From Lutibacter sp. (GTDB taxonomy: Bacteria; Bacteroidota; Bacteroidia; Flavobacteriales; Flavobacteriaceae), in the NCBI GenBank assembly GCA_041652835.1, contig JBAZGP010000001.1:1-41558 (forward strand): a stretch of DNA of 41,558 nucleotides. The letters are read 5' to 3'. Position 1 is the stretch's first letter. Every line of letters begins with the position of its first letter. Below, piece after piece: positions 2,846 through 41,558 of this stretch. A model generated the notes under the pieces. That model was not told the DNA's origin and did not search any database. It worked only from the letters and a program-made list of their open reading frames with translations. Position numbers and translations under genes: made by a program.

Positions 2846-3222
2846 TTCAAAAATTTAACAGATGATTTTTGTATATTTTTATCGGCAACTTTCAAATCTT
2901 TAGGCGTGTATGTGTCAGTTTGTGCAGAACTGTAATGCCTTGCCTGATCTCTAACCGAAATTAAAGGAACTCCTGCACGCAACAAATCAGTAATGCCACT
3001 ATCTTTAAGGCTATACCAATCAATATTTTTATTAATTGCCAGTTCCGTTCTCATTCGCGCCCAGCTTTTAGTAATTCTATCCGGATGAATAGGTCTAAAG
3101 AGTTTATCACCTCTAAAATTTGCGGAAGTTTGCCCTATAGAAGTATAAAAAAATTCTTTAGTAACATCTTGTTTTTCAGCAAATTGCTTAATTCTTTCTT
3201 TTATGGCCGAAACTTTATTCAC
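2842..3222 (-). pseudogene. In-frame chimera: CI-like repressor N-terminus (aa ~1-44) plus tyrosine integrase C-terminus (aa ~45-126)
   Basis: IKERIKQFAEKQDVTKEFFYTSIGQTSANFRG is an XRE-type repressor start divergent from a cro-like gene; WYSLKDSGITDLL...VRDQARHYSSAQTDTYT is a recombinase box II with His and Tyr; most of both proteins is missing. Confidence 0.8.
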
Positions 3223-3260
3223 TTTTATTTGTGTATATGAAACTTTATTCTCTATATTTA
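3209..3260. promoter_or_regulatory. Immunity-region operators/promoter: GAAACTTTATTC x2 (3209-3220, 3239-3250) and a -7-like TATATTTA (3253-3260)
   Basis: Exact 12-bp repeat between the divergent repressor-like and cro-like genes. Confidence 0.55.
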
Positions 3261-3589: not shown

Positions 3590-4219
3590 ATGAAAGCAAT
3601 TGAATTTATTTATCAGGAAAACGCCATTCATTTTTTAGTGAATCCTAAAAATGACAATGTAATGATAAACGCCACAGAAATGGCAAAAGCATTTAATAAA
3701 AGAGTTGAAGATTTTAAAAGATTAGATGGTACTTCCATTTTTATTGAAGCACTTTTGAAGTCAGAAAATAGCAAGTTTGAACACGCAGATGTGCGTGAAC
3801 AACTTACCGAAAAAGATTCAGAAAACAGCAAATTTGAACCCTCACATGTGAGGGAACAACTTACCGAAAAAGATGTTATTTATGGAACCAATAAAGCCAC
3901 TTTTATGCACAGGAAATTGGCGATGTATTTTGCATTTTGGTTAGATGTTGATTTCCAAATTTGGATTATTGATACAATTGATGATATTTTATTTGGAAAC
4001 TACAAACAACACGATCAGGCAGTAATCGAAAATTTAAAGTTTGAAAAAGAACTTGAAGATGTAGAAGTTGAACTTTATAACAATCCTTTGTTTGTAAAAT
4101 ATCAAAATATCAATTTACTTATCAAAACTACAAACGCTGAAAAGCGCAAAGCTTTAAAAGCACAAATAAATCAAATTAAGTTAGATTTTTCAAACAGTGA
4201 TAAATCTACTTCACAATAG
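3590..4219 (+). CDS. KilA-N domain protein (antirepressor-like), copy 1
   Basis: VMINATEMAKAF...TFMHRKLAMYFAFWLDVDFQIWI KilA-N signature. Confidence 0.9.
   Translation: MKAIEFIYQENAIHFLVNPKNDNVMINATEMAKAFNKRVEDFKRLDGTSIFIEALLKSENSKFEHADVREQLTEKDSENSKFEPSHVREQLTEKDVIYGTNKATFMHRKLAMYFAFWLDVDFQIWIIDTIDDILFGNYKQHDQAVIENLKFEKELEDVEVELYNNPLFVKYQNINLLIKTTNAEKRKALKAQINQIKLDFSNSDKSTSQ
3761..3874 (+). repeat. 57-bp (19-aa) tandem duplication inside KilA-N copy 1
   Basis: SENSKFEHADVREQLTEKD / SENSKFEPSHVREQLTEKD at 3761-3817 and 3818-3874. Confidence 0.9.
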
Positions 4220-10084: not shown

Positions 10085-10504
10085 ATGAAAAAAACAGCAC
10101 ACGAATTTAAAGGCGGTTGGGGAAAAATAATTATTGAAGCCCCAACGCAAAAAGCGGCCAAAAAGGCTTTGCAAAGTTTCAAATTGAAAATTCTCTATTT
10201 AACGGTACACAAACAAGCATTTGATGTGATGGTAACGGGTGAAAAAACAAATGAATTCAGAAAATATACCAAATGGATTATTTCACGTCTTATAGACAAA
10301 AAAACGCTTAAACCAAAAGAATATGATGTTGTGAAGATTGTAAATGGTTACGGAAACTCCAGACCTTATTTTATAGCTGAATTTAAAGGGTTTTTCTATG
10401 CCGAATTATTTTCTGTCATTCATTATTCCAATGGATTGCAAGTAAAACAAGAACCCGGTGATTTTGTGATAAAACTTGGTAAAATAACGGAGCGAAAACA
10501 TTGA
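10085..10504 (+). CDS. ASCH/PUA-like domain protein
   Basis: LYLTVHKQAFDVMVTGEKTNEFR (GxKxxExR motif), NGY, and FVIKLG near the C-terminus. Confidence 0.8.
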   Translation: MKKTAHEFKGGWGKIIIEAPTQKAAKKALQSFKLKILYLTVHKQAFDVMVTGEKTNEFRKYTKWIISRLIDKKTLKPKEYDVVKIVNGYGNSRPYFIAEFKGFFYAELFSVIHYSNGLQVKQEPGDFVIKLGKITERKH

Positions 10505-10536
10505 AATTAATTAACCATAAACCAAACCTTTAAAAA

Positions 10537-10668
10537 ATGAGCCCAGAAACGTCAAAACCAATACCGCCTATGTTAAATATTTTATTCAAACTAAAATCCG
10601 GATTTGCAAAGTTCATAAAGTTTATGGAAGAACAGGCTAAGGATTGCCCTAGAGAAACGAAATGGTAG
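10537..10668 (+). CDS. 43-aa protein whose stop codon begins the attC-like site flank
   Basis: Translated by hand, MSPETSKP...CPRETKW*. Confidence 0.5.
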   Translation: MSPETSKPIPPMLNILFKLKSGFAKFIKFMEEQAKDCPRETKW

Positions 10669-10747
10669 CATTGTATTTAACTTACTGATTAAAATTTGGT
10701 GTAGCGTAGCGAATCAATTTTATCAGTTGTTAAATACAGTGCGATTT
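10666..10747 (+). repeat. attC-like site 1 (ATTTAAC 10675-10681 ... GTTAAAT 10729-10735)
   Basis: RYYYAAC/GTTRRRY cores and a bulged inner stem ACTGATtAAAATtTG/CAATTTTATCAGT; outer flanks recur at 20491 and 21689. Confidence 0.7.
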
Positions 10748-10803
10748 GAAAAAACTTACTTAAAATGAATTGGAATCAAAAAAAATTTTAAAACTCAATT
10801 ACA

Positions 10804-10974
10804 ATGAAAAACATCTTAAATCTTTTAGACAAATATGAGAATAGACACGACGGTAATCTACATAAAATCATTAGTTTTTCTGATGGAAGTGGAACAATAA
10901 TTAATTGTGAAGCTGAATCTGAAATTTTTCAATTTGAAACCCAAGAAGAGTTAGAAAATTTTTTAAAAAATTAA
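10804..10974 (+). CDS. 56-aa hypothetical protein
   Basis: Translated by hand, MKNILNLLDKYENRHDG...LENFLKN*. Confidence 0.55.
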   Translation: MKNILNLLDKYENRHDGNLHKIISFSDGSGTIINCEAESEIFQFETQEELENFLKN

Positions 10975-10998
10975 CCTAAAAACTAAATTAGAATAAAA

Positions 10999-11541
10999 AT
11001 GAAAAATCTAAAAAATGTAAAATTTATAGCAAAAGATTGGTCAAATAATGAACCGATAATTGGTAATTTATCAGTTAGATGCAAAAAAACTTTAAAAACT
11101 TTTGACGAATTAAAAGTTACACGTGAAGACGGTACAAGTTTCGACACTAATCATCATGGATATATTATTGGAATTGAAACGGAAGGTGGATTTGTTATGG
11201 TTAATCCAGAAACTATTTTTCTTCCTGAAAAAGTAACAAGCGCCACTAATAAAGTAACAATAGGCTTTGTTAATTGGCTAATGGAAAATTGCGAATTAGC
11301 GGAAGATAACTCACTTTGGAGTTATAATGGTGAAGATTACACAAACAAAAAATTATTTAAAATTTACAAAAACGAAATTAAAGCGGAAGTAGACAATAAA
11401 AAAGAGGGATTTGAACTAATAGAAATATTACTTAACGAATTTCATAATGATTTAGCTAAAAACATTATTGATATGAAAATCTATAAACCATTGAGTTCTG
11501 ATTTGTTGATTATTAAAGAAAAAATTCATCTTCTTAAATAA
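10999..11541 (+). CDS. Hypothetical protein, YopX-like N-terminus
   Basis: VKFIAKD...IIGNL...VNPETI pattern; C-terminus looks composite. Confidence 0.5.
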   Translation: MKNLKNVKFIAKDWSNNEPIIGNLSVRCKKTLKTFDELKVTREDGTSFDTNHHGYIIGIETEGGFVMVNPETIFLPEKVTSATNKVTIGFVNWLMENCELAEDNSLWSYNGEDYTNKKLFKIYKNEIKAEVDNKKEGFELIEILLNEFHNDLAKNIIDMKIYKPLSSDLLIIKEKIHLLK

Positions 11542-11546
11542 AAATT

Positions 11547-12323
11547 ATGGTACTTACTCGCCTAGGCAATAAAAGAAGAATGAAAACTCAGCTTTCAACT
11601 TATTTTCCAAATCATAAAATGAGAATAGAATTATTTTTTGGCGCTGGAGGCTCTTTTTTTTATTTACCTGAGCCTAAATTTTCTATTCTAAATGATCTGG
11701 ATGATGATGTAACTAATTTATACCTGGTAATTCTTGATCAAAAAGAGGAATTTAAAAAACAAGTTGCGATGTTACCAATTTCAGAATCTTTAATAAATTA
11801 TTGGAGGTGTAATTTAGAAACTGAGCCAATGAAAAAAGCCTTGCGCTTTTTATTACTTTCTAACTTTACGTATTTAGGCAAAGGAGATACTTTACGGCTG
11901 GGAAAAGATCACAGCAAAAGAAACTTATTAAATAGAATTGAACCCACGTTTTTAAAGCTGCAAAACGCTAAAATAACCAATGTAGATTTTAGGGATGTTT
12001 TAGGGAAAATTTCCTTCGATAAAAATGTTACGCCAAAAAACGAATGCTTTGTTTATTTGGATCCAGTTTATTTAGATACTGAACATTATTATAAGGTTCC
12101 AGATTGGAAGCCATCCGACACCGAAGATTGTTTTAAAATTATGGCTAATTGTGGTATTAAAACTGCTATGTCGGAATTTGACCATGAGCAGGTTTTAGAT
12201 TTTGCTTCAGATTATAAAATGAATGTAATCAATTTAAAAACTCGTCAAAATATTAAAAATAAACGGCAAGAACTGTTAATTACTAATTACGATGCCAAAC
12301 AACAAATTTCATTAAATATTTAA
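11547..12323 (+). CDS. Orphan DNA N6-adenine methyltransferase (D12/Dam-like class)
   Basis: RLGNK, ELFFGAGG (motif I), LNDLD, YLDPVY (motif IV variant), ELLITNY. Confidence 0.9.
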   Translation: MVLTRLGNKRRMKTQLSTYFPNHKMRIELFFGAGGSFFYLPEPKFSILNDLDDDVTNLYLVILDQKEEFKKQVAMLPISESLINYWRCNLETEPMKKALRFLLLSNFTYLGKGDTLRLGKDHSKRNLLNRIEPTFLKLQNAKITNVDFRDVLGKISFDKNVTPKNECFVYLDPVYLDTEHYYKVPDWKPSDTEDCFKIMANCGIKTAMSEFDHEQVLDFASDYKMNVINLKTRQNIKNKRQELLITNYDAKQQISLNI

Positions 12324-12332
12324 AACCAAATT

Positions 12333-12524
12333 ATGCAAGTAAAAAATAATGATGGTAGCTATGGCGACTTAGTTCCTTTTGATCAAGATGAAATGGAAAC
12401 ACTCCTTTCAAATCCGGATACGGAAAGTGTGGAAGTATTTAAAGCTTCAGACAAGCAAATTATAAAGCACAATAAATACAGTGTTGGAAAACGCTTTAAA
12501 AAAGTACCCAGAATTAAAAAGTAA
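12333..12524 (+). CDS. Hypothetical protein
   Basis: ORF track. Confidence 0.6.
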   Translation: MQVKNNDGSYGDLVPFDQDEMETLLSNPDTESVEVFKASDKQIIKHNKYSVGKRFKKVPRIKK

Positions 12525-12527
12525 CTT

Positions 12528-12695
12528 ATGGAATGGACTAGTAAAATGGTTAAAGAAAAAATGTCAGTTGAAAAAGTAAGCACTTTGCTCCTGGCGTTAG
12601 AAATAATTGCAAATGGTGATCCAATAGGAATTGGAGTGGATGAAGTTAAAGGAGTTTGCCAAAAAGCATTAGAAGTTTTTAATAAGGATGATTAA
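12528..12695 (+). CDS. 55-aa hypothetical protein
   Basis: Translated by hand, MEWTSKMVKEK...VFNKDD*. Confidence 0.55.
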   Translation: MEWTSKMVKEKMSVEKVSTLLLALEIIANGDPIGIGVDEVKGVCQKALEVFNKDD

Positions 12696-12743
12696 GTAAT
12701 TAAATTTTCAATGCAACAATCAAGTAACATTCCGTTGTGGGAT

Positions 12744-12771
12744 AAAAAGACTGCCGGTAGGCGGTCTTTTT
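12744..12771 (+). terminator. Bidirectional intrinsic terminator ending the early operon
   Basis: AAAAAGACTGCC-GGTA-GGCGGTCTTTTT. Confidence 0.75.
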
Positions 12772-12829
12772 GCATATATTTTCTATTCACTACAATTTAC
12801 AACTTTTGGAAATTTTTGTTTTTGGCTCG

Positions 12830-13170
12830 TCCCCCGTACCCCCTCAATATAAAACATCGGGTAAAAGGTAATGAGCGAAATCTAATTTTTTGGGAAAGAC
12901 AAATGTTTTAGAACCTACTCACCTACTTTTATATTAATAGTATAGATATTATTTATATAACATACTATATATTAAGATTTTAAATAAAAAAAACTCGGTA
13001 GGTGCTAGGTGTAAAAAAGGTAGGTAATAGGTAGGTGCTTTAAAAAATACAAAACCTACCTTTTTTACTGAAACCTACCTAGTACCTACCTTTTTAAAAT
13101 AGCTTTAATTTATTTATATAACTGATAATCAGTAATATTAGGTTAAAAGTAGGTGAGTAGGTGGTTCTAA
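12830..13170. other. Putative replication origin (ACCTAC/GTAGGT iteron array)
   Basis: Non-coding; perfect 18-bp IR 12913-12930/13145-13162, inner clusters of GTAGGT and ACCTAC, AT-rich spacers. Confidence 0.6.
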
Positions 13171-13199
13171 TTCCTGAAAACTACCGGTCGGTTTAAAGA

Positions 13200-13235
13200 T
13201 GTCCTATTTATAAAAATGCCACTGCATTACATTTG
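13200..13235 (+). promoter_or_regulatory. Late-type promoter TGTCCTA-N21-TACATTTG
   Basis: Motif recurs with identical spacing at six sites. Confidence 0.7.
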
Positions 13236-13255
13236 ATTTACTAAATAATTTTAAA

Positions 13256-13468
13256 ATGGAAATTTCAGTATTAAGCGTTGGCGGTTCCAAAAAAAAACCA
13301 ACTCAGATTTATAAGCCTGTATCAAAAAAAGATTTGGAAGATCATTTAATGTTAATTGAAAAATTGAAGCAAAAACGGCAAACCTTTAAAATTGTTGAAA
13401 AGGGTGTTGAAAATAAATACTATTTTAACGGAAATAACTATATAATTAGCTCTAAAGTAGTTAAATAA
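13256..13468 (+). CDS. Hypothetical protein
   Basis: ORF track; follows the promoter motif. Confidence 0.6.
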   Translation: MEISVLSVGGSKKKPTQIYKPVSKKDLEDHLMLIEKLKQKRQTFKIVEKGVENKYYFNGNNYIISSKVVK

Positions 13469-13484
13469 GTATTATATTCGTCTA

Positions 13485-13979
13485 ATGGCTGCGGAACTAA
13501 TTTACACCAAAGAACCACTACGAGTAAAAGTGCCAATGAAACCGTATGTGGTTAAATTCTTATTAAAAAAATTTGGGAAAACGCATAAAGCTTCAAAAAA
13601 TTCGTGGCTAGGTTTAAATGCTATTGAATTGCTTAGAAAAGATTATTGCAAGCCGGTTAAATTGACCTCTAAAAATTATTTTACCATTGTAATACCTTAC
13701 TCGCTTTGTGTTCAAAACGGCCATTTTGTAGATTATACGAAGTTTCCGGAACTTGAAAAAAAGTGTGAGAACATTTTCCGCAATTTTATGTATGATTTTA
13801 TACAAATTAATTCTGTAAATGCTGGGAGCGGTGGCGTTACCAGAAGCCTTCGAAATTTTTTGGCATTTTATAAAATTAATGAGGATGAATTGAAATCAGA
13901 TTCCGTTTACCGACAATATATGAGGTATTTGAATGAACAAATGACAGATTTAAAAACTGATAAAAAAAAAGCGTCGTAA
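13485..13979 (+). CDS. Putative late-gene transcription regulator
   Basis: RHH-like N-terminus (RVKVPMKPYVVKFL) and helical C-terminus; lies just before the structural genes; function inferred. Confidence 0.45.
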   Translation: MAAELIYTKEPLRVKVPMKPYVVKFLLKKFGKTHKASKNSWLGLNAIELLRKDYCKPVKLTSKNYFTIVIPYSLCVQNGHFVDYTKFPELEKKCENIFRNFMYDFIQINSVNAGSGGVTRSLRNFLAFYKINEDELKSDSVYRQYMRYLNEQMTDLKTDKKKAS

Positions 13980-14040
13980 AACTTTCATTTTTAGAGAGTT
14001 AATTTATGACTGAATTGTTTAAAATAAAAAAGTGTCCTAA

Positions 14041-14520
14041 ATGAAAATAGTAAGTTTAATGCAAAGAGAACAAATAGGCGGTTTTCACAGCATAGAAGTA
14101 ATTACGCTTGAAGATATTATTTTTTGTCCGCATATTTTAACCAACGAAAACGCATCCACTTTTCAATATACCAAAGGTTATAGTGATGCTGTTGAAATTA
14201 TGCCTGTTGGTGAAACGCTGGCTGTTGGTTCATCAACCACAAAAACAAGTTCAGGCAGATTATTTAATATTACAGCCACTTTTGAAGTGTTATATTTAGA
14301 TGCTCCTATTGACACAATTTTTAATAATTTTCAGCATAAAAAGGTAGTTGTAAAAGCAAATAAATACGACGGAACTTCTATTATATATGGCAGCGTTCGT
14401 TATCCGCTTACTTTTTATTATGATCTCACAAACTCTAAAAAAGCTGAAAGCCCTTCAAAATTTAAGGCTAAAATTACCGGTAAAATATCTCAAAAACCCG
14501 TAATTTATAAGCCTATATAA
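14041..14520 (+). CDS. Putative virion structural protein
   Basis: Beta-rich, with a pattern reminiscent of tail tube folds; precedes the protease. Confidence 0.5.
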   Translation: MKIVSLMQREQIGGFHSIEVITLEDIIFCPHILTNENASTFQYTKGYSDAVEIMPVGETLAVGSSTTKTSSGRLFNITATFEVLYLDAPIDTIFNNFQHKKVVVKANKYDGTSIIYGSVRYPLTFYYDLTNSKKAESPSKFKAKITGKISQKPVIYKPI

Positions 14521-14523
14521 AAG

Positions 14524-14559
14524 TGTCCTATTTAAAGCTGCTGTATTAAAATAGGTTTG
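14524..14559 (+). promoter_or_regulatory. Late-type promoter TGTCCTA-N21-TAGGTTTG
   Basis: Upstream of the protease-capsid operon. Confidence 0.75.
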
Positions 14560-14582
14560 TAATGTGCTAAAGCATATTACAG

Positions 14583-15881
14583 ATGGATATTAGTAACGTA
14601 CATTCTTTATTAAGTGATAAATGGTTTATCAACCAATCATACGGACAGGCTTTAATGCCTACTTTATTTTCAATTTTAAGTGGAAATAAAATTTCTATTG
14701 AAAAAACTAAAACTCCTGAAGCTTTCATTTCATCTGAAAATAAATCAATAGTTGCAAGCAATTTTGATTCTTCAAACAATAATGAGGACTATGTTTTAAT
14801 TGTTTCTTTAAAAAACCCAATTACAAAATATAATCAATATTGTGGTCCTGAGGGAACAAAGTCAAAACAACAAACAATGGCATCTTATGAGGGAGACCCT
14901 AAATGCAAAGGTGTTGTTTTAGATATTGATAGTGGTGGTGGTCAAGTTTCAGGCACTCCTGAATTTCACGATTTTATTAAAAACTATTCTAAGCCAGTTG
15001 TTGCTTATACTGATGGCTTAATGTGTAGTGCAGCTTATTATCTAGGAAGTGCTGCAAGTTACATTGTTGCAAATAAAAGGGCTGATGCTATTGGAAGTAT
15101 AGGTACTATGATTTCGTTTGTAGATATGACCGGATTTTATGAGAAAAAAGGAGCTAAAGTAATTACGGAATATGCTACAAAATCCACAGAAAAAAATAAA
15201 GATTTTGAAGACCTTTTAAAAGGTGATCCAACTGGTTATATAAAAAACGAGTTAGACCCAATTACAGACACTTTTCATGATGATGTGAAAGCAGCTAGAA
15301 AAAACTTAAATGAAGAAGTTTTAACTGGAGGAACTTATAATGCCAAAAAATCTATTACTAATGGACTTATTGATGAAATAGGAACTATGAAAACAGCAAT
15401 TGAAAAAGTCTTTTCATTAGCAAAAACTAAAAAAAGTAACACCCAAAATTCCAACCAAAATATGAAAGAAATTAAGGCTCCTAGCATTCAAAATGCTTTA
15501 GGATATGAAACTCCTTTTCAGGCAACTGATGAAGGTGTTTTTATGCAAGAAAGTGAAATTAACACTTTAGAAACCGCTTTAACTTCTGCAACTGCCAACG
15601 CAACTACTTTACAAGCCAATTTGGATACAGTGAACACCACTGTAACCGATACTGCAACTGTAATTGATGCTGCTTTAGACAATGCGGAAATTGAGCACAC
15701 TCCTGAAATGAGTTTAAGCGAAAAAATTACATTGCTAAACAACCAGCGCAATGAGTTTGCAAAAAAACCAAGCAAACAAAATACAGCTGCTATTAGTGAT
15801 GGTGATGATGCTCCAGATGGTGCGCCTATTAAAAAAGTATATGCTCATAACGAGTATGCAAAACAACTGTTAAACCAATAA
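14583..15881 (+). CDS. Prohead protease (S49/SppA family) with C-terminal scaffold region
   Basis: LDIDSGGG, MCSAAYYLGS, IGSIG, GLIDEIG; possible internal scaffold start at MKEIKAP. Confidence 0.9.
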   Translation: MDISNVHSLLSDKWFINQSYGQALMPTLFSILSGNKISIEKTKTPEAFISSENKSIVASNFDSSNNNEDYVLIVSLKNPITKYNQYCGPEGTKSKQQTMASYEGDPKCKGVVLDIDSGGGQVSGTPEFHDFIKNYSKPVVAYTDGLMCSAAYYLGSAASYIVANKRADAIGSIGTMISFVDMTGFYEKKGAKVITEYATKSTEKNKDFEDLLKGDPTGYIKNELDPITDTFHDDVKAARKNLNEEVLTGGTYNAKKSITNGLIDEIGTMKTAIEKVFSLAKTKKSNTQNSNQNMKEIKAPSIQNALGYETPFQATDEGVFMQESEINTLETALTSATANATTLQANLDTVNTTVTDTATVIDAALDNAEIEHTPEMSLSEKITLLNNQRNEFAKKPSKQNTAAISDGDDAPDGAPIKKVYAHNEYAKQLLNQ

Positions 15882-15895
15882 TTCAATTTTAAATT

Positions 15896-16909
15896 ATGCC
15901 AACAATTAGCGTAACAAGTGTAAAAGCCGAATTAGATGACTACATTGACAATAACAAAGATGTTATTTCTGTAGGCGTTTATGCCGGTGAAGTGCAGTTA
16001 GATAAATACTGCAAAAAGATTTCCTCTGTAAAAGGGAAATATCCTCAATTCCATAAAGTCTTGTCACGCGTTGTACAAGGTTTTAAAGCCGAATGGCAAG
16101 CATTAGGAGAGATGCAATTTAGAGCGAAAGTTTTACAAAACTTCCGTCAAAAAGTAAACTTACCAATAATTGTAGATGAAATTTACGGTACCTGGTTAAG
16201 CGATTTGAAAATTGAGGGGAAAACTCCTGAAGAGCAACCAATTTCTAAATTAATAATTCAGGAATTATTAGAAAAAGTGATTGACGATTTAAGCGATTTG
16301 TCAATTGTAGGAGATACATCGGCAGGTGTTGCCGACGGTAATTTTGGTTATTCAGTTAACGGAATTGGAAAAGTAATCAGCTTGGCTTTGGCCAATGTTG
16401 CAAATCCTGTTTACCGCATTCCTTTAGATGCTATTGTGCCTGCAAACATTTTAGATATGTTTAAGCAGTTTGAAAGAACCATACCTTCAAAAGTTCGTAA
16501 AAAAGTGAAACAAATTTTTTGCTCGGACAATGTGAAGTTAATGTACGGCGATGCTGTTGTTGAAAAATATGGAGATCATACCAATTACAGTGAAGACAGA
16601 ACCGGTAAATCCGAAACTTACAAATTTGAAATTGTTGGTTTAGAAGGTTTGGCTGATGATGTGATTTTTGCAACTGCCGATGGCAATATGCTAAAATTGA
16701 TTGATGTAATTGACAATCCGCCTACAATTACCGACACTCAAGTGCAAGATTATGTACTTAAAATCTTTATGGAATTTCATTTAGGTTATGATTTCGCAAT
16801 AAATGAAATTGTATTTGTTGCCGACTTTAATGCTTTGGCCGTTGCCGGATTACAAAGCAATGCTTTAAACGCATTGTATTATGATGCTGAAAACTTACCA
16901 TTAATTTAA
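15896..16909 (+). CDS. Major capsid protein
   Basis: 337 aa directly after the protease-scaffold; size and position fit. Confidence 0.75.
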   Translation: MPTISVTSVKAELDDYIDNNKDVISVGVYAGEVQLDKYCKKISSVKGKYPQFHKVLSRVVQGFKAEWQALGEMQFRAKVLQNFRQKVNLPIIVDEIYGTWLSDLKIEGKTPEEQPISKLIIQELLEKVIDDLSDLSIVGDTSAGVADGNFGYSVNGIGKVISLALANVANPVYRIPLDAIVPANILDMFKQFERTIPSKVRKKVKQIFCSDNVKLMYGDAVVEKYGDHTNYSEDRTGKSETYKFEIVGLEGLADDVIFATADGNMLKLIDVIDNPPTITDTQVQDYVLKIFMEFHLGYDFAINEIVFVADFNALAVAGLQSNALNALYYDAENLPLI

Positions 16910-16913
16910 TATT

Positions 16914-17429
16914 ATGGCAAAACAACAAGTAAAAACATCAGCGACTTCGGTTGCTGATGTTACACCAGAACAACTTCAATCTAAAGTTTTAGAACTTGAA
17001 GGATTATTAGCTGCTGAAAAAACAGCTAAAGAAGAACTTGGAAAAGCTTACAACGAATTGCAAAATGAATTTGTTGAAGTTTCAGGAGCCAAAGCGTCAT
17101 TAGAAACCAATGTAATTGCTTTAGGCGCTGAATTAGAAGCTGTTTTAGAAAGTAGAAAATTAGCTGAAGAAGCATTGGAAAAATTAATGTCTGCCTCGGT
17201 TCCAACAGAAACAAATGAAATTGATGTTGAAGCTGAAGAAATTGAAGAAGCCCGCCCGGAACATACTTTAACCGATGGCCGTAAATTTTCATTTACAAAA
17301 AAAGCCCCTAAACACTTAAAAGTTTTAGGTGTTGTTCATTCTCAGGCTGAATTGGTGAAGAATAAAGAAGCGATGGAATTCCTTATTTACGGAAATTCAT
17401 TTTTTGTTGAACAAATAAATTCAAAATAA
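16914..17429 (+). CDS. Hypothetical coiled-coil virion-module protein
   Basis: ORF track; E/A/L-rich heptads. Confidence 0.6.
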   Translation: MAKQQVKTSATSVADVTPEQLQSKVLELEGLLAAEKTAKEELGKAYNELQNEFVEVSGAKASLETNVIALGAELEAVLESRKLAEEALEKLMSASVPTETNEIDVEAEEIEEARPEHTLTDGRKFSFTKKAPKHLKVLGVVHSQAELVKNKEAMEFLIYGNSFFVEQINSK

Positions 17430-17430
17430 G

Positions 17431-18015
17431 ATGGATTTTGTACATGATATTAAATTAGAAGTAATTGGAGGAACATCCATTGAACCAACAGGCGGTTTTA
17501 GCCACGTTGATATTTTGATTGCTCCTACCAGAACATTTACAAACATTGCCGGTGTTAAGCCAATTGAAGGCGATGTTTTACTGGATCTTGCCACTAGCGC
17601 AAAAGATGCCGCAGAAATTACAACCGATCATACATTTAATGTTGGTTTTGGTTTTGCCAAGTTTAAAGCTGTGCAAGATAAAAACGGATTAGAAAGTGCA
17701 ATGCTTGGTGAAAAAGGCGGTAAAGTTTTTGAAAACAAACTAACTGTTGTTGTTCGCGGAACTGATCCTGAAACTATTGGTGCTTTGCGTTTGTTGAAAA
17801 ACGAACAATTAATCATTTTAGCCAGAGAAGCCGGAACCGGAAGATACCGACAAATTGGGCATTCTCGTTATGCTGCTGAATTATCTGAAGCCACGCCAAA
17901 AATTGCTCCTGAATATGAAGGAGAAAATGGTGTAACATTTGTTTTTTCTGATAAAAACATTGTTGCGGCCCCAATTTATACCGGTGTAATTACTATGCAA
18001 CCGGCTGCTGTATAA
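17431..18015 (+). CDS. Putative major tail tube protein
   Basis: 194 aa, G/T-rich beta protein ending the capsid operon before a terminator. Confidence 0.6.
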   Translation: MDFVHDIKLEVIGGTSIEPTGGFSHVDILIAPTRTFTNIAGVKPIEGDVLLDLATSAKDAAEITTDHTFNVGFGFAKFKAVQDKNGLESAMLGEKGGKVFENKLTVVVRGTDPETIGALRLLKNEQLIILAREAGTGRYRQIGHSRYAAELSEATPKIAPEYEGENGVTFVFSDKNIVAAPIYTGVITMQPAAV

Positions 18016-18058
18016 TTATTCATGTTTTTTTGTTTATATTTATTTTTATTGATTCCTT

Positions 18059-18086
18059 AAAAACCACTTTAACCGGTGGTTTTTTT
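18059..18086. terminator. AAAACCAC...GTGGTTTT hairpin family member
   Basis: Stem with A and T tails. Confidence 0.75.
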
Positions 18087-18087
18087 G

Positions 18088-18123
18088 TGTCCTAAAAATA
18101 ACAATTGTTATTTATCACTTTTA
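18088..18123 (+). promoter_or_regulatory. Late-type promoter TGTCCTA-N21-CACTTTTA
   Basis: Same spacing as the other copies; ATG at 18128. Confidence 0.6.
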
Positions 18124-18127
18124 CCGT

Positions 18128-18283
18128 ATGAAAAAAAATAAATATCATATAGAAAAAGAATTGAAGATTTATAAAGGCTTCGGTTTTTGTTTTGCTGTTC
18201 ATTTTGAAGGCGGTTTTCAATTAGTTATAATAGTACTTTGTTTCTATTTCAGGTATATGTTAGAAAAAAGAGATGACAGTTAA
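18128..18283 (+). CDS. 51-aa hydrophobic hypothetical protein
   Basis: Translated by hand; follows the promoter motif and overlaps the next start. Confidence 0.45.
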   Translation: MKKNKYHIEKELKIYKGFGFCFAVHFEGGFQLVIIVLCFYFRYMLEKRDDS

Positions 18284-19040
18284 TGAATGGATTGCAAGTG
18301 GTGAAAACTATAAAATTGGTTTGGAAATATACCAAAGCCTGCCAAACCATAACGCCAATTTTTTAAAAGTGTGGAGCCGTAAAGAAACGCCTCAAAACTT
18401 AATTAAGCTGCGTTACGAACTTCAAAAACAATTACAGCCTACATTAAGCGTTTCAACATCTGAAATTATTGAAGAAAGTAAACCTGTAGGTTTAGATAAA
18501 TACTTCAGAAAACTTAGAATTAATGAATTGCCTGTTGCTTTACATCCAATTTATATTCAGCAAAAAAATGATTTTTCAATTGCCTGTAGTTTAAAAATTC
18601 AATTGAATGCCCTGGGCAATATTTTAGACTGCAATGGAAATATTGTTTTTGGTGCCGATGGATTGCCAAAATTAAAACCACAAACAAAAGATGATCAAGA
18701 AAAGGCTTTGCGTTTGTGCTTAAAAATTGAAAGCTTGTTTGATGCCATTGATAAAACTTGGGGTGTTATTGATTATTATCTGGAAAATAAAATAGTTCCT
18801 AAAATTACGGAAAACGATTTTTCTACCTTATCTGAAGGAAAATTACGGGATAAAATAATTTCGGTTCGCTCATCTATTACACGCCAAAACCAACGCTTGG
18901 CAATGCTTCGCCAAAAATTAGCCTTTGCCATTGCCAAAAAATTTAAAATTAAATACGAACGCAATATTGCTAAATGCGATAATGCGCTTATGCAATTAAA
19001 CCAGGACCTTATAAAACTTTTAGAAATTAGAGATAAGTAG
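18273..19040 (+). CDS. Hypothetical helical protein
   Basis: ORF track, 255 aa. Confidence 0.7.
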   Translation: MTVNEWIASGENYKIGLEIYQSLPNHNANFLKVWSRKETPQNLIKLRYELQKQLQPTLSVSTSEIIEESKPVGLDKYFRKLRINELPVALHPIYIQQKNDFSIACSLKIQLNALGNILDCNGNIVFGADGLPKLKPQTKDDQEKALRLCLKIESLFDAIDKTWGVIDYYLENKIVPKITENDFSTLSEGKLRDKIISVRSSITRQNQRLAMLRQKLAFAIAKKFKIKYERNIAKCDNALMQLNQDLIKLLEIRDK

Positions 19041-19085
19041 AAATGAAGTGGTTTTATTCCCTCCATTTGGTGGAAATAAATTTAT

Positions 19086-19111
19086 AAAAACCACTCAATT
19101 GAGTGGTTTTT
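19086..19111. terminator. Perfect 26-bp palindrome, bidirectional terminator
   Basis: AAAAACCACTCAATTGAGTGGTTTTT between convergent genes. Confidence 0.8.
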
Positions 19112-19113
19112 TT

Positions 19114-19329
19114 TTAGTTCATTTTAATTTCTTGAATAATATAATCTAAAATTTTGATGGGTTTGGACTTGTTTAACCTTGTTATTGTCCAATAAGAAGG
19201 AAATTTAGGTTCTACTAATTTAATTTCTTCACAAAGTTGCTTAAGGTTTGTAAATAAGCCTAAAGTGATGTTATCTCTATTAATAACGTAGTATTTCTTC
19301 TTTTTTAATCGCTCTTTATATGTAACCAT
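19114..19329 (-). CDS. 71-aa basic protein (module copy 1)
   Basis: Near-identical paralog at 35661-35876 with conservative substitutions. Confidence 0.8.
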   Translation of the reverse strand: MVTYKERLKKKKYYVINRDNITLGLFTNLKQLCEEIKLVEPKFPSYWTITRLNKSKPIKILDYIIQEIKMN

Positions 19330-19432
19330 ATTGCGAATTTACAAAAATAGTCGGAAATAAATACAAAAATATTTGTTTTACAATAAAAACCTGCTATCTT
19401 TGTAAAATATTAATATAAAATAACATAATATT

Positions 19433-19987
19433 ATGAATCAAAAAACAGAAACACCAACAGAAAATGTAGTTGAATTTTTGTACCAAGAAACACAAATTCA
19501 CTTTTTAGTAAATCCTAATGAAAAGGATGTAATGATTAATGCCACCGAAATGGCAAAACTTTTCGAAAAAAGAACGGGAGATTATTTAGCAAATCAAACC
19601 ACAAAAACGCTAATTAATGAACTTGAATTAACGCTAATTAGCGTTAATTCAAATGTTAAAATAATTGAAAACAGAGGTCAATTAGGTATGTATTTTTGTC
19701 CAATTTTAGCAATTGACTTTGCTACATGGTTAGATGTTAAATTTAAAATTTGGGTATATGAAACTATTATATCAATAATGTTTTCAAAAACCAAGTCTGT
19801 GGAAAATGCAGTATCTTTAAAACAACAACAAGAAGCTAAAAAAATAGCGTTAGTTGAAAAAGCCACTAAAGAAAATAATAAGGATTTTTTAGATTATTTA
19901 CTTGTTCAAAAAGCTATTAAAAAAATTACTTCTTTAGAAAACAAAGCCATTAATAATTTAAAATCTCAATATAAAATTAATTTTTAA
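19433..19987 (+). CDS. KilA-N domain protein, copy 2
   Basis: VMINATEMAKLF...LAIDFATWLDVKFKIWV. Confidence 0.9.
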   Translation: MNQKTETPTENVVEFLYQETQIHFLVNPNEKDVMINATEMAKLFEKRTGDYLANQTTKTLINELELTLISVNSNVKIIENRGQLGMYFCPILAIDFATWLDVKFKIWVYETIISIMFSKTKSVENAVSLKQQQEAKKIALVEKATKENNKDFLDYLLVQKAIKKITSLENKAINNLKSQYKINF

Positions 19988-20070
19988 TAAATTTTGGCGG
20001 GGATAATTATCCTCGCCAAATTAAAATTTTAAGCTATTTATTATCAGAATAAAAAAAATTATTATCTTTA

Positions 20071-20240
20071 CAACGACAAAAAAACCAGTACAATGATTTC
20101 AAAAACTAATTTTTTAACAATACGGCAGGAGTTCGGTAGCAGTAATGCCCGACAGCTTACATTACTTCGGTACTGGTTTGGCTGGTCAACTCCTGCTATT
20201 TTTAATATTTACCGTTATGACAGACAAAACCAGTACCCAA
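20071..20240 (+). ncRNA. Putative C4/CI-like antisense RNA or structured leader, copy 1
   Basis: -7-like TATCTTTA 20063-20070; closing stem GCAGGAGTT/AACTCCTGC; inner GGTACTGGTTT complementary to AAACCAGTAC both upstream and at the downstream gene start. Confidence 0.6.
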
Positions 20241-20486
20241 GAAAAAACACCTGTAAACATCGAAAAAGAAATAGCCTGGTTAATTGAAGGCTTTAATATG
20301 CATTTAAATTGTTTGGAAAGCCCTCAAAAGAAGCTACATTCTAGTTTAATGTGCTTAGATGAACAATCTTTCTCCGATGAAGAAAAACTTGTTGTAAGCA
20401 GTTTTTTAAATGATGTGTTGGCATTTACCTTTACTTTAAAGGACAGACCCGATGATATTAAAAAATTTATAGAATATCATACCTAA
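20217..20486 (+). CDS. 89-aa hypothetical protein (start revised to ATG 20217)
   Basis: Aligns end to end with 36744..37016 when started at MTDKTS. Confidence 0.75.
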   Translation: MTDKTSTQEKTPVNIEKEIAWLIEGFNMHLNCLESPQKKLHSSLMCLDEQSFSDEEKLVVSSFLNDVLAFTFTLKDRPDDIKKFIEYHT

Positions 20487-20610
20487 ATTTTAGCATTGTA
20501 TTTAACGTATACGTATATGAGCATCTTTTAAATTTAAGCGTTGGCAATTTGGCTGATAAGCCAAGAAATATGCGGTCTTTGAAATAGTTTCGTAAAGTTT
20601 TCGTAAATAA

Positions 20611-20664
20611 TAAGTAAATACTTACTAAAATATTTGCGAGATAGTAAGTATATACTTATCTTTG
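20611..20664 (+). promoter_or_regulatory. Bacteroidota sigma-A promoter (TTTG 20633-20636, TATCTTTG 20657-20664) with two TAAGTA-NN-TACTTA operators
   Basis: Canonical -33/-7 with a 20-nt spacer; palindromes at 20611-20624 and 20645-20658. Confidence 0.75.
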
Positions 20665-20687
20665 AGTATAATTAAAAAGCTAAATAT

Positions 20688-21093
20688 TATGACAACTTTA
20701 AAAATAGGACAAACAGTTTACACAACTTCAGGGATAGAAGGCACAATAGTTGAAAATCAAGGAATGTTTACATTAGTAAATGTTAATGGTGAAACTAAAA
20801 AGTTAATGACTATGATTTTAAAATCTAAACCAGTTTCTAAAAAAGTAAAATCGTATATGAAAGAAGAAACTAAAGAAGTTATAAATTTTAATTCAATAGT
20901 TAACAATTTAGAAGGAACTTCAAAAATGCGTAATTCTTTTACTTTACCAATTTATAATGAAATTGAAAAATTAGCAGATTCTAAAAACCATTTTGCAGGA
21001 TCAATTATAGAAGATGCAAGAAACGGAAAAAAAATATCAAAAAAACAAGCTCAAGTAGTTGCTTTTTTCGCAAAAGAAAATGGTTTAATCTAA
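20688..21093 (+). CDS. Hypothetical protein (start likely the ATG of MTTLKIGQ)
   Basis: ORF track TTG start lies inside the -7 box; N-terminus is a small beta (KOW/SH3-like) segment. Confidence 0.7.
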
Positions 21094-21104
21094 AAATTTG
21101 AAAG

Positions 21105-21521
21105 ATGAAAAATTTAAAAATTATAATAAAAGAAGATTTAACAATTTTAGAAATATCTAAAAAAGGAACATTGATTTTAAATTGCGATGACTATAAATTA
21201 TTTGGATTTGAAAATAGACCTTTCAATTTGTCAGCAGTTCCAATTGTTAATGGACATACTAAAAAAATAATTTATGAAGTAAAAGGAGCTTATAAGCATA
21301 CGTGGTCGCAATCTCAACAAAATATGAGTGAAATGGGTACTTTTAAAATTATTGATATTAAATCTATAAAAGATGAACTTAGTTTAACAGATGATGATTT
21401 AGCTAAAATGTTTGGTTATAAAAATAGACTTTCTTATACAAATTCATCTGCTAAAAGCAGAATTGAAAAAGGTTTAGTTTCTTTTTATTCTCTAATTAAA
21501 AAAAGCGAGGGAGAAATTTAA
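21105..21521 (+). CDS. Protein with C-terminal HTH (probable autoregulator)
   Basis: IKSIKDELSLTDDDLAKMFGYKNRLSY; the stop codon lies inside the right arm of the giant element. Confidence 0.65.
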   Translation: MKNLKIIIKEDLTILEISKKGTLILNCDDYKLFGFENRPFNLSAVPIVNGHTKKIIYEVKGAYKHTWSQSQQNMSEMGTFKIIDIKSIKDELSLTDDDLAKMFGYKNRLSYTNSSAKSRIEKGLVSFYSLIKKSEGEI

Positions 21522-21643
21522 AAGTTGCTTATATGCGAAGTTAACTGCCGTTTTTGAAAACTATGAAACGGCAAAAATAAAAAAGGAAATGAACAAAAAG
21601 AATAAAACAGTTAGAATAGAAATTGACATCGGACAAAAATGAC

Positions 21644-21708
21644 ATTTAACTTTCCGATTGAAAATTCGTTTTAATGAATTTTATCGGATGTTAAATACAG
21701 TGCGATTT
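21644..21708 (+). repeat. attC-like site 3 (ATTTAAC 21644-21650 ... GTTAAAT 21690-21696)
   Basis: Bulged stem TCCGATtgAAAATTC/GAATTTTATCGGA; right flank identical over 20 bp to 10728-10747. Confidence 0.7.
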
Positions 21709-21715: not shown

Positions 21716-21742
21716 AAAAGCCACTTAAAATAGTGGTTTTTT
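21716..21742. terminator. CCACT...AGTGG hairpin family member
   Basis: Stem with A and T tails. Confidence 0.65.
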
Positions 21743-21771: not shown

Positions 21772-22059
21772 ATGATAGACGCTACTCCTCAAATTACCCA
21801 ATTCTTAAAAGAGAATTTTAAGCCTTCTAACTTACTCGAAGCTACTCACAAACTAACTACACAACAGCTTTTAAACTTGCTTTTTAATGTGTTTCCAAAA
21901 GGTTCTATAGATGATTATGATTTATATCAAATTTTAATATCTTTACAGTACGCACCATTTAGAAATACAATTGAAATTGAAGATTTGGAAACCGATGAAA
22001 TAATTACCGAATTATCTTTAGTTTGGTGTTTGGAGGAATTAGGAACAATGCAATTTTAA
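21772..22059 (+). CDS. Hypothetical protein
   Basis: ORF track. Confidence 0.65.
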   Translation: MIDATPQITQFLKENFKPSNLLEATHKLTTQQLLNLLFNVFPKGSIDDYDLYQILISLQYAPFRNTIEIEDLETDEIITELSLVWCLEELGTMQF

Positions 22060-28259: not shown

Positions 28260-31200
28260 ATGCAATTTCCCATAAATACAGGTCCAAAAGAAGATCATCC
28301 TACACGCCTTGCAAATCTTATCGGGGTCGATCCAAAATATTACTACAAAGCTGAAGAATTAAAGCTGTATGAAAATGCTATAAATGAACTTTACAGTTTA
28401 TTAGGAACATCAAATAGTAATGAAAACAAAGTCATCGACTATACCCTTGAATGGATTCCCGGCACTTACACCTACAAAATAACCGTACGAAAATACATAT
28501 TCAACGGCGTACTGCACACAAACACCATTTACTTTGAAAGAACTTTAGGCGCATCCGACCTTGTTTACAACCGTTTCGACAGTTTTCTAATTGATGCAAA
28601 CGAACAAATAATTGTATGGCCGGGCGATGCTGTAGAATTTCCTTACCCAAAAGAGTTTGATCTAGATACCTATGTATTAATAAATTTTGTACGTGTTGAT
28701 GCCAATACAACAGCACCAACAGGACATAGTGAGATTTTGGTATTTAATGAAGGTACTGGTGCTCCTGGAGAATGGGCCATCAACTATTTAAGCGGAACCT
28801 TAAGCACCGAGCATCCTAGCCTTGACTTAAAATCTATAAAACTCGTAAACAAACAAGCTGTTCTGGCCACTTCACCAGTTCCGTATGAAGGCCGTTTTTT
28901 AAAAGATTTATTAATTGATGTTACTTGCTACACGGCAGCCGCAAATAACCGCTTGCGCTTTTCTTTTTGGATTGCCGATACTATGCGCGTGGGTGAAGTT
29001 TACGTAACGCATGGCACTTTTAATTTCGATGCCTTTTTAGTGGGCGTGCCACAAACCATTGTAATACCGGGAAGTGCCTTTGTAAATGGCGGCACTTGGG
29101 GCAATTTTCAATATAATAGCCTTTGGATGAATAATGATAAAACGGGCACTATCGTTTATTTAGATAATGTACGCATACAACAAACCGATAGCGAGCAGGT
29201 TTCCGGGACAAACCATACCCACAAAGAACTTGCTTTTTTAGAATCATTAAACCAAGCTAAGTTTGATGCAAAAGTAGGATTCACAGCAGCAGGCGTTTTA
29301 GCCACAGTTTTAACAGGCATATCATTTGTAACAGGAACGGCAATAGTTGCAACCGATAGTATTTTGGTTGCGTTTGGAAAACTGCAAAAACAGATAACTG
29401 ATATTTTAACGGCATTAAACAGCAAACAACCTATTTTAGTAAGTGGCACAAACATAAAAACAATAAATAGCACAAGTCTTTTAGGAAGTGGTGATATTGC
29501 AATTACCAATTCGCCTTATAGTGTTAGCCAAACGCCTGACAATGGTACTTATGGTTTATTAGCGGGTACTGTTAACGGAACTAATACAGTTTTTACAACT
29601 GACAAAGGTATTTATATAGCAGGTTCATTGGTTGTTTATTTAGACGGTCAATTAATGACACAAGGAGGTTTAAACGATTATACAGAAACAAATCCAAGCA
29701 TAGGAACATTTACTTTTGTAACAGCTCCACCAAGTGGTAGTATAATTACAGCAATGTATAATGATGGTGAAGCTATCATTACAGACTTGTCTATTTATAA
29801 ATTGAAAACGGACAACGTAAAGATTGAACCTTGGACTGCAAAAACTTATCTTTTAAACGACCAAGTAAACCATTTAGGAAAAGATTGGTACGCAAATGCC
29901 GCAACTCTTTCAACTGATGTTCCTGGTACTTCTACAAAGTGGGTTAATAGGCTTAGTGGTATGGCAAACGGCATTGTTGCAAGTGGTAATGTTGATGCTG
30001 TTAAAGGTGGTGATATATTTGATGCCTTTAAGAGTTTAACAACTAAACAAGGTTATTTACAATCTTCAAAAATTAGTTCTATTGATTTTGATTTTATAAG
30101 TAATAGGGTTGTTTTATCGGATGGTTGTTATATATTATTACCAAACAGTGCAACATACCCATTTATAGATTCTGTAAGTATTGATTTTACAAATATAGCA
30201 AATTACCTTATTTATAATATTGTTTCTAATTTATTAGAAGTGCACCCAATAACAGAGGTGAGTTCAGCGTCAATTATAAATGATAGCGATGTGGTTATTG
30301 TTGGAACATTTTTTAAATCAGAGGGAAGCGTTAATTTAAACGGTTCATATTTTACTGTTAATGGAAAAGAATTAAATATAAATATGAAAAAAACAGGATA
30401 TTTACAGACTTCAAAAGATACCAACATAATAAATTTTGATTTTGTAAATAGTAAAATAATAATACCTAATAATACTTATATTTTATTACCTGATAGTGGT
30501 ACGTATTCTATTATATCGGCAATAACGCTTAGCATAGGTACGGTTGCAGCATATTTATTTTATGATATAAGTACAAATACAATATTTACATCAACTGTTG
30601 TGGACGTAAATTTACCAACTTATTTAGACGATAAAGATAATATTATTTTAGGCACTTATTTTCCTACGGAAAAAAATGTAAATCTTAATGGTTCGTATTT
30701 TCAAATGAATGGTTTTGATTATGGTATTGATACTACCCCATTCACTTTTGTAGATACGGTACAAAGATTAATATTACCTCCTGAAATGTATTTTATAGAC
30801 AATGAGGAATTGCCGCTTTATAAAAAAAGCATCTTAATGGAAGATGATATTTATAAAATAAACGAATTACAAACAGTTGTAAAATCAAATATAAATTCAG
30901 CAAACAGATATAATGGTTTTAATTATAATACAACGCTTAAACCTGAAAATTTAGGTTCTCTTTTCAATATTGGAATTAGTCAATCTAAAAATGCTGATTA
31001 TAACTACTATGCAAACATTATAAAAAACACTATGCCCGCTTCTAATTTAATAGGCAAAGCGATAAAGGTTTTAAGTATTGGAGATAGTTTAACTGCTGGC
31101 GGTATTCCTAAAAAATTAAATGATGCTTTAACAAGTGCGGGTGCAACCGTTACAAGTATTGGTAGTTTTGCTGATGTTTTAGGCACTTATGGAGAAGGAA

Positions 31201-35434: not shown

Positions 35435-35660
35435 ACTAAAAATGTTGCTGTTATGCCGGTTCAATTAAAGCTGCAACCCAATTATTTAGAAATTTACGAT
35501 TCACAATTTTTACATAATTATGCAAACAATTACAAGCTAAACAGCACTGCTAAAATTCATTTTTACCAGAGTTACCCCTATAAGCAACCCATACCCTTTC
35601 TCTATACATAGTGCCATTACTTGGATTTAAAAAACCACTCGATTGAGTGGTTTTTGTTGT

Positions 35661-35876
35661 TTAGTTCATTTTAATTTCTTGAATAATATAATCTAAAATT
35701 TTGATGGGTTTGGACTTATCTAACCTTGTTATTGTCCAATAAGAAGGAAACTTAGGCTCTATTAATTTAATTTCTTCACAAAGTTGCTTAAGGTTTGTAA
35801 ATAACCCTAAAGTGATGTTATCCTTATTAATAACGTAGTATTTCTTCTTTTTTAATTGCTCTTTATATGTAACCAT
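35661..35876 (-). CDS. 71-aa basic protein (module copy 2)
   Basis: Paralog of 19114..19329; start set at MVTYKE. Confidence 0.8.
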   Translation of the reverse strand: MVTYKEQLKKKKYYVINKDNITLGLFTNLKQLCEEIKLIEPKFPSYWTITRLDKSKPIKILDYIIQEIKMN

Positions 35877-35979
35877 ATCGCAAATATACATATATATTCG
35901 AAAATAAACGTATATTTATTTGTTTTATAAAAATATTCGAGTATCTTTGTAAAATATTAATATAAAATAACATAATATT

Positions 35980-36546: not shown

Positions 36547-36596
36547 CCATCCCCCTCAGGGGGTATAGTTGAATTCAAAAAAAATTATTATCTTTA

Positions 36597-36765
36597 CAAC
36601 GCGAAAAACCAGAAAAACAATGATTTTCAAAAACAATTTTTTAACAATACGGCAGGAGTTCGGAAGCGGTAACGCTCCGACAGTTTCGATTACTTCGGTT
36701 TTCTGGTACTGCGCACCTCCTGCTATTTTTAATCTTCAATATTATGCGAAAACCAGAAGAAACAC
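36597..36765 (+). ncRNA. Putative C4/CI-like antisense RNA or structured leader, copy 2
   Basis: TATCTTTA 36589-36596; stem GCAGGAG/CTCCTGC; inner GTTTTCTGGT..GCGCA complementary to GCGAAAAACCAGAAAA upstream and TGCGAAAACCAGAA at the gene start. Confidence 0.6.
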
Positions 36766-41517: not shown

Positions 41518-41558
41518 TTTTGAATTAGATTTAACTCCTTTTGAAATTACAACGGTTG
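40480..41558 (+). repeat. Diverged direct repeat, copy B
   Basis: Colinear with 1-1079. Confidence 0.95.
41495..41558 (+). CDS. 5' fragment of the tail tip protein, allele B
   Basis: MHKIIYSSFELDLTPFEITTV versus MHKIIYSSYELDLTPFKITTV at 1016. Confidence 0.8.
   Translation, partial: MHKIIYSSFELDLTPFEITTV

Follow-up and report, generated by a model that had tools for sequence, protein, structure and literature searches.

Known systems of cassette exchange

In mosaic phage genomes, the movement of single accessory genes is mostly ascribed to rare illegitimate recombination. In the elements considered here, one defined type of site and of junction reappears in phages that are unrelated, often ahead of anti-restriction methylases. 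The elements comprise two intergenic hairpins (H1 and H2) and a long-range paired structure (X) located in the window, a 41,558-bp stretch of a Lutibacter sp. assembly (GCA_041652835.1, contig JBAZGP010000001.1, positions 1 to 41,558) that carries a phage genome, together with their counterparts in other Flavobacteriia phages.

Xer-dependent elements lack a recombinase of their own and carry inverted short sites on which a host tyrosine recombinase acts in trans, the substrate being a folded single strand; CTX-type phages integrate in this form via Xer, and pdif modules are carried by Acinetobacter plasmids. In T4-type phages, promoter-early stem-loop (PeSL) elements have reportedly been treated by Comeau et al. 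2014 (PMC4122927). According to Arbiol et al. 2010 (PMC2839356), a PeSL combines a strong early promoter with a terminator, and homologous recombination takes place anywhere along the repeat. Like the sites described below, PeSL of T4-type phages are repeated intergenic stem-loops that border variable genes and are tied to insertion, deletion and replacement of open reading frames (ORFs), circles containing one element plus an ORF having been reported (PMC2839356).

Integron attC sites are 57-141 nt long with the variable part confined to the terminal structure, and are recognized by structure, with about three conserved nucleotides (PMC5371416). Groups of attC sites that have no integron-integrase (CALINs) are defined as two or more attC sites spaced by less than 4 kb, on one strand and without intI (Cury et al. 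2016, PMC4889954). Qi et al. 2023 (PMC9892861) described such integrase-less clusters in phages, including Polaribacter phage P12002L. Phage attC clusters (PMC9892861) and PeSL-mediated shuffling (PMC2839356) are already in print; a literature search, in which PMC9892861 was covered in part, did not turn up the hairpin family, the reversal of its polarity or the junctions between P12002L and P12002S presented below. The sites resemble integron attC sites and CALINs in being imperfect hairpins with RYYYAAC/GTTRRRY at the base, in bounding single accessory genes, in having cassette junctions inside the AAC core and in that one strand folds better. The cores themselves conform to the attC pattern, with ATTTAAC and GTTAAAT in H1 and H2 and ATTTAAC and GTTAAC in X.

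A 1137-bp unit inserted at the core of hairpin H2

Site H1 (10666-10747; + strand, as are all components of the three sites) is intact, with the 5' core ATTTAAC at 10675-10681 and the 3' arm GTTAAAT at 10729-10735. Its 14-bp outer stem pairs 10668-10681 with 10729-10742 and, as in H2, extends 7 bp beyond the core. An A-rich tail (10748-10789) follows the hairpin. The full outer flanks TAGCATTGTATTTAAC and TGTTAAATACAGTGCGATTT are present at both this locus and a second one; in the window, GCATTGTATTTAAC occurs with no mismatch only at 10668 and 20493, and its near-complement (one mismatch) only at 10729-10742 and 21690-21703. A previous sequence-only reading of this DNA had reported these shared, near-complementary flanks, which are confirmed as exact copies, and had described the second locus as having the same flanks with about 1.1 kb more between them. 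The first part of that description holds, but the additional DNA is precisely placed: H2 is split at its 5' core by a 1137-bp insert (20507-21643), with ATTTAAC at both junctions (20500-20506 and 21644-21650). The detached H2 5' arm, TAGCATTGTATTTAAC (20491-20506), is now joined to the body of site X, 1137 bp away from the H2 body and 3' arm (21644-21708; GTTAAAT at 21690-21696).

The insert is absent from G001, a viral contig of 34 kb with 85-93% identity to the window in mosaic blocks. G001 carries both hairpins and its H2 is uninterrupted, TAGCATTGTATTTAAC being joined directly to TTTCCGATTG, so that the 1137-bp unit sits exactly at a core that is intact in a close relative. The right insert junction was also recovered in an identical 151-nt contig of sequencing run X3, which belongs to another study and contains identical pieces of the window phage. 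A single apparent joint in the same run proved to be an H1 copy aligned on the shared flanks and not an excision joint.

The insert begins, directly after the core, with the left inner arm of X (20507-20535), which pairs with a partner 978 nt away, the right inner arm (21514-21546), which ends in GTTAAC. This long-range inverted repeat has a 26-nt arm with 4 mismatches, the best of 2000 shuffles having 6, and the pairing extends into the duplicated core (TTAAC with GTTAA), indicating that the core is part of the incoming site rather than a target duplication. The apical loop of X accommodates a two-gene module (20586-21521) made up of a palindrome-rich upstream region, ORF1 (20689-21093, 134 aa) and ORF2 (21105-21521, 138 aa). 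A 97-nt spacer (21547-21643), with a small hairpin at 21546-21573 and a 17-codon ORF at 21589-21642, separates X from the body of H2. Core-to-core lengths are 61 nt for H1, 53 nt for H2 and 1047 nt for X; X and H2 lie 1.1 kb from each other, on one strand, and H1 lies about 10 kb away.

ORF1 and ORF2 have no PHROG, Pfam or PADLOC match. Their structure models are confident (predicted local distance difference test scores of 86 and 85) and yielded no PDB fold at E≤0.001, the predicted N-terminus of ORF1 being weakly similar to small beta-barrels. Contigs of 37016, 3169 and 1169 bp contain homologues of ORF1, and contigs of these lengths also contain homologues of ORF2, suggesting that the two genes travel together.

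The 7-bp direct repeat flanking the insert, its inverted repeats and the single event in the window phage lineage would also be compatible with a non-autonomous transposon that generated a target duplication, or with a one-off microhomology insertion at a fragile palindrome, the hairpins having no cassette role. This explanation is very improbable, since the right inverted repeat is displaced 97 nt inward from the right end, the true ends do not form inverted repeats, no transposase was found among the window ORFs scanned, and the position of the junction recurs in five junctions of unrelated phages in which the shared letters are only TAAC(GT).

Searches with simple DNA patterns recovered no further relatives. 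The right-arm pattern matched 7 loci in genome contigs and 11 in metagenome contigs, all chance matches, and the right-arm pattern of X had no match in viral contigs. The left-flank 15-mer was found at at least 119 and at least 120 loci, in 21 of 64 and 7 of 64 parts of the contig collections, respectively, which is chance level, with no partner arm among the 239 loci examined, and the right flank with two N matched 118 loci, none of them genuine (L358, which was inspected, is unrelated).

Structure and strand preference of H1 and H2

The sequence-only reading had proposed three sites with cores and imperfect stems, a description that agrees with the shuffling of X given above and with the predicted folds of the other two sites. 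As RNA, H1 folds at -29.8 kcal/mol (z -5.3; 0/200 shuffles as good) and the H2 body at -17.7 kcal/mol (z -3.2; 1/200 shuffles as good). The two hairpins have the outer stem in common and differ in their inner stems by three compensatory pairs, changed on both sides, as had been noted from the letters alone. Covariation of the stems is thus present between H1 and H2, and also in the wider family described below.

The reported excess of G-T wobbles on the top strand is borne out by model R1, which gave 108, 103, 93 and 70 bits on the + strand vs 34, 28, 41 and 21 bits on the - strand, G-T pairs favoring +. The predicted fold includes an asymmetric 2/1-nt spacer and a single bulged T, each located on the + strand in the 5' arm; in canonical attC sites, extrahelical bases and an unpaired central spacer mark the bottom strand. 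Stop codons do abut the 5' arms: TAG at 10666-10668, which ends a 43-aa ORF, TAA at 20484-20486, 4 nt ahead of the flank, and TGA at 21640-21642. A repeat spread over the host genome was considered and, within the limits of the scan, rejected: among the 150 of 6675 candidates that were scored, the R1 matches in the host metagenome-assembled genome (MAG) are confined to the phage contig. Rfam returned no match of the sites at gathering scores, only sub-threshold rows. A sigma-70 promoter scan, with a tool that does not cover Bacteroidota promoters, was at chance (74 found vs 68 expected).

A second strain departs from the window close to H1. In X1, the likely source run, window 10772-10948 is present in two versions, an identical one at depth 10.8 and another, with 17 differences, at depth 4.0; they diverge from about 10802, right after the H1 tail, at the end of an island conserved with G001. 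More distant relatives have another conserved structured element where the window has H2 plus a terminator (L018 7900-8046 and L020 15418-15564). It consists of GCGAAACATTTT ... AAAATGTTTCGC around inner stems, lies just upstream of the homologue of window ORF 21772-22059 and shows four pairs with compensatory changes between the two copies.

A hairpin family in Flavobacteriia phages

The distribution of the sites was assessed with two models of Flavobacteriia-phage hairpin sites, R2 and R3, the latter trained without any H sequence. Outside its training set, R2 matched P12002L (L056) and L424 twice each, L020 and the Flavobacterium phage mymlan6-1 once each, and P12002S five times at E<0.05 (two matches in L431 and three in L433). 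When R3 was applied to the window plus G001 (75.8 kb), the top four matches were H2 of G001 (27.4 bits), H1 (25.1), H1 of G001 (23.8) and H2 (21.1), with rough E-values of 0.001-0.03, the next match having an E-value of 0.09.

Intergenic hairpins beside methylase genes of P12002L align with H1 and H2, and share with them ATTG followed after four variable letters by YAAC, then CGTTT..AATG at the apex, TGTTA and a tail rich in U/A. ATTG, the apical CGTTT..AATG and TGTTA are conserved across phages of different genera, and an 11-nt loop, TCGTTTTAATG, is common to H2 and two P12002L sites. Among 12 aligned sites, in an alignment that was itself fitted to the model, 91.0% of cells are paired vs 76.4% in shuffles (0/500 reach this value) and 10/19 pairs are changed on both sides; pairing falls to 36-46% when the partner is slid. 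One apical-stem pair is G.U in 11/11 sites, and the sites are all on the coding strand. Five of the six P12002L sites lie directly 5' of DNA-modification genes, and the L418 site is likewise immediately 5' of a methylase, which has 75% identity with window 11547-12320. With their coding-strand orientation, the apical G.U and a junction that follows the 5'-arm YAAC, the sites of the window belong to this wider Flavobacteriia-phage family; X is comparable by its arms only, which by eye resemble the inner stems of the family.

Some of these features would suit a different role. The hairpins could be RNA-level regulatory elements of the sense transcript (leader, processing site or terminator-associated) and mere patches for homologous or microhomology module swaps, as PeSL are in T4-type phages. 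The coding-strand placement of all sites, the invariant G.U pair and the conserved apical loop fit an RNA element. The strand asymmetry of H1 is larger with RNA energies (-29.8 on + and -21.4 on -) than with DNA energies (-16.3 and -14.7), and H2 lies 7 nt ahead of a terminator-like hairpin with a T-run (21716-21741, + strand), which is context outside the site. H1 and its tail, moreover, form a 129-bp island (10661-10789) of 96.9% identity to G001 that is kept between two replaced segments, the breaks being off the core, and the PeSL precedent is published (PMC2839356). Against this, the Rfam comparison gave no matching family, the insert brings its own core-bearing site, and the position of the junctions, analyzed in the next section, is more restricted than such swaps would lead one to expect. 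As a full account this explanation is considered rather unlikely, although an RNA-level role may coexist with a role of the DNA.

Cassette junctions in P12002L and P12002S

P12002L and P12002S are 92-100% identical around two arrays, in which they carry differing cassettes joined at the same core position. All five junctions examined, three in the 30-32 kb array and two bounding a replaced block at 37.3-39.2 kb, fall right after the 5'-arm YAAC of the coding strand, where the two junctions of the window also lie. Read on the coding strand, P12002S site A is the same as P12002L site 32291 as far as ATTGCAGGTAAC and then diverges; P12002S site B coincides with this P12002L site starting immediately after TAAC and has a different 5' arm, which together with the end of the preceding methylase corresponds to the 5' flank of P12002L site 30066. 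The replaced block is shared up to ACAACGT on one side and from just after AAC on the other. Indel breakpoints at the cores of relatives, proposed by the sequence-only reading as a check, are thus present both at the empty site of G001, with the break in ATTTAAC, and at these five junctions.

Taken together, the in-site cassette junctions are at or within the 5'-arm core of the coding strand in 7/7 cases (2 in the window and 5 in P12002L/P12002S), and identity common across the junctions is limited to 4-7 nt. An identity of 4-7 nt is short for homologous exchange, and all seven junctions occupy this one core though about 70 nt of alike sequence could host a crossover, which weighs against swaps at RNA-level patches. 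The sites also differ here from PeSL (PMC2839356), in which exchange is not confined to one core, and no promoter was apparent inside the family element.

The same junctions bear on the possibility that the sites are canonical integron attC sites of the CALIN type, with G|TT of the bottom strand as the point at which a host IntI recombines them. The cores do fit RYYYAAC and GTTRRRY, CALINs in phages are published, and HattCI called one family member, P12002L_attC1 (family site 29996-30066), an attC site (PMC9892861). However, the crossovers are located in the 5' arm, as read on the coding strand, and not at the G|TT of the 3' core, and the gene follows its hairpin. Sequence conservation includes the apical loop and one G.T pair, whereas attC sites share only 3 conserved nucleotides, and site X spans 1047 nt vs 57-141 nt for attC sites (PMC5371416). 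The outer stem of H1 and H2 continues 7 bp past the core, H1 lies about 10 kb from the other sites with no long array, and in published assays P12002L_attC1 was the only site of six without IntI1 recombination (PMC9892861). In addition, the best TIGR02249 score in the host MAG was 109 bits vs a cut-off of 265, and the phage contig gave no match. That the sites belong to the integron attC/CALIN class, as put forward by the sequence-only reading, is therefore most improbable; its more general idea of landing pads for cassettes served in trans remains a fair interpretation.

Both P12002L arrays end in one unit of about 70 nt, AACGGATAAAACAAG...AAAGTTTGAT (L056 29160-29260 and 37200-37270, - strand), and the P12002S array ends in it too, at the corresponding position. 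The published P12002L_attC2, a site that is recombined by IntI1 (PMC9892861), is the reverse complement of this unit, which could be the terminal or entry site of the array. Published P12002L attC1 is read here as a copy of the family and attC2 as the reverse complement of the array-end unit, and attC predictions in phages need to take strand and junction into account.

Candidate recombinases

The absence of an integron integrase from the phage, noted by the sequence-only reading, is correct and yet incomplete, as an ordinary tRNA-targeting phage integrase of the relatives has been deleted here. An IntI-like gene in the host, which that reading had suggested looking for, was not found at the TIGR02249 cut-off in the MAG. 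The phage contig has none of the fourteen Phage_integrase matches of the host MAG, and the insert encodes no recombinase. A compact recombinase beside the sites was looked for in G001-G009 and in P12002L and was not found.

G001-G004 encode an integrase of about 390 aa of generic type. The phage's own integrase was considered as the enzyme of the sites and set aside: it is deleted in the window and intact but generic in G001, where attP goes with a tRNA 3' end, and it has no link to the sites. Recognition by Xer was evaluated through a candidate dif site found on host contig C17. The 17-mer of this candidate gave 2 matches in the window vs 2.78 expected, which is chance, so that a dif-like 3' arm was rejected and the sites differ in this respect from Xer-dependent elements.

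Proposed cassette exchange

The most probable interpretation is that H1, H2 and X are family sites bounding cassettes, and that a non-integron recombinase acting in trans likely cuts and rejoins them immediately after the 5'-arm YAAC, with folded DNA of the coding strand as the probable substrate. A cassette would begin immediately after one YAAC, take in the hairpin body and the gene, and extend to the next YAAC; since the hairpin then leads the gene, the usual integron layout is reversed. The 1137-bp unit fits this rule: it is made up of the body of X, whose loop contains the two-gene module, the 3' arm of X, the 97-nt spacer and a new 5' arm with ATTTAAC at its end. It may have entered as a circle via one exchange between the cores of X and H2, a step that would give exactly the observed order. 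The coding strand would be the strand that folds and the enzyme a host or helper recombinase, and the sites may additionally act on the transcript.

Several observations weigh against this proposal. No candidate recombinase for the sites was found: the window ORFs scanned have no recombinase domain, P12002L has no match to PF00589 (tyrosine recombinase), the integrases of site-bearing proviruses lie at contig ends and not beside the sites, and that of G001 is ordinary, with a tRNA 3' end in its attP region. H2 folds almost equally well on both strands as DNA (-19.5 and -19.4), and the U/A-rich tails and the coding-strand bias fit an RNA element equally well. In the window phage lineage only one core event is documented, the breaks between the window and G001 around H1 (at 10661 and 10789/10790) are off the core, and four further discontinuities between the two genomes are ORF-precise indels or replacements with no hairpin. 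Neither an excised circle, which the sequence-only reading had suggested looking for, nor an empty-site joint was present in the assembled contigs of four runs. Lastly, the module (20586-21487) occurs in runs X2 and X4 in other flanks and without the inverted repeat, indicating that it also moves by other routes and that its entry into the loop of X was a separate event.

A broader proposal, that Flavobacteriia phages, virulent ones included, run their own cassette exchange, is offered more tentatively. Such exchange would combine a conserved hairpin, a cut in the 5' arm of the coding strand and no integron integrase, and would trade methylases and small modules between unrelated genera, the window containing a freshly captured cassette whose empty site is seen in a sister phage. 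If a dedicated or host enzyme does act on the sites, this would constitute a second, phage-borne route to cassette arrays, would explain the rapid trade of counter-defence genes among phages and would provide a testable site for enzyme discovery.

Genomic context of the window phage

The window corresponds to a phage genome of about 40.5 kb with 32% G+C, and is contig C1 of a 4.0-Mb MAG of 33% G+C. Its clear genes are all on the + strand and include a primase, a D12 methylase, an S49 prohead protease, a large terminase, a portal protein, a tape measure protein and three KilA-N paralogues. The closest isolate by large terminase is Polaribacter phage Leef_1 (46% identity), which places the window phage among Flavobacteriia-type phages. 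The contig ends are alike (1-1078 vs 40480-41558, about 1.08 kb each), with about 97% identity over the 300 nt compared; as this is not 100%, the terminal overlap joins two variants rather than the ends of one molecule.

A remnant of the lysogeny module is found at 2842-3222 (- strand), an ORF in which a repressor-like N-terminus is fused to the last ~87 residues of a tyrosine integrase that is whole in relatives. Between window 2842-3251 (- strand) and G001 10233-12904, about 160 bp take the place of about 1.7 kb of G001; the segment gone from the window comprises most of the integrase, the tRNA 3'-end region and part of the repressor-like gene. This deletion explains the absence of an integrase in the window phage, which looks like a lysogeny-defective derivative of a temperate family.

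The KilA-N paralogues are located at 3590-4219, 19433-19987 and 35980-36546. Two of them lie inside duplicated modules (19107-20148 and 35654-36675) with 72-89% identity, bounded by near-identical terminator hairpins AAAAACCACTC..GAGTGGTTTTT at 18058, 19085, 35629 and 37066. A gene-free region at 12913-13250, conserved in G001, contains many direct and inverted ACCTAC/GGTAGG repeats, among them a 23-nt inverted pair of 96% identity (13014-13036 with 13073-13095) and 35-nt arms at 12913-12947 and 13128-13162, and may represent an iteron-type replication origin.

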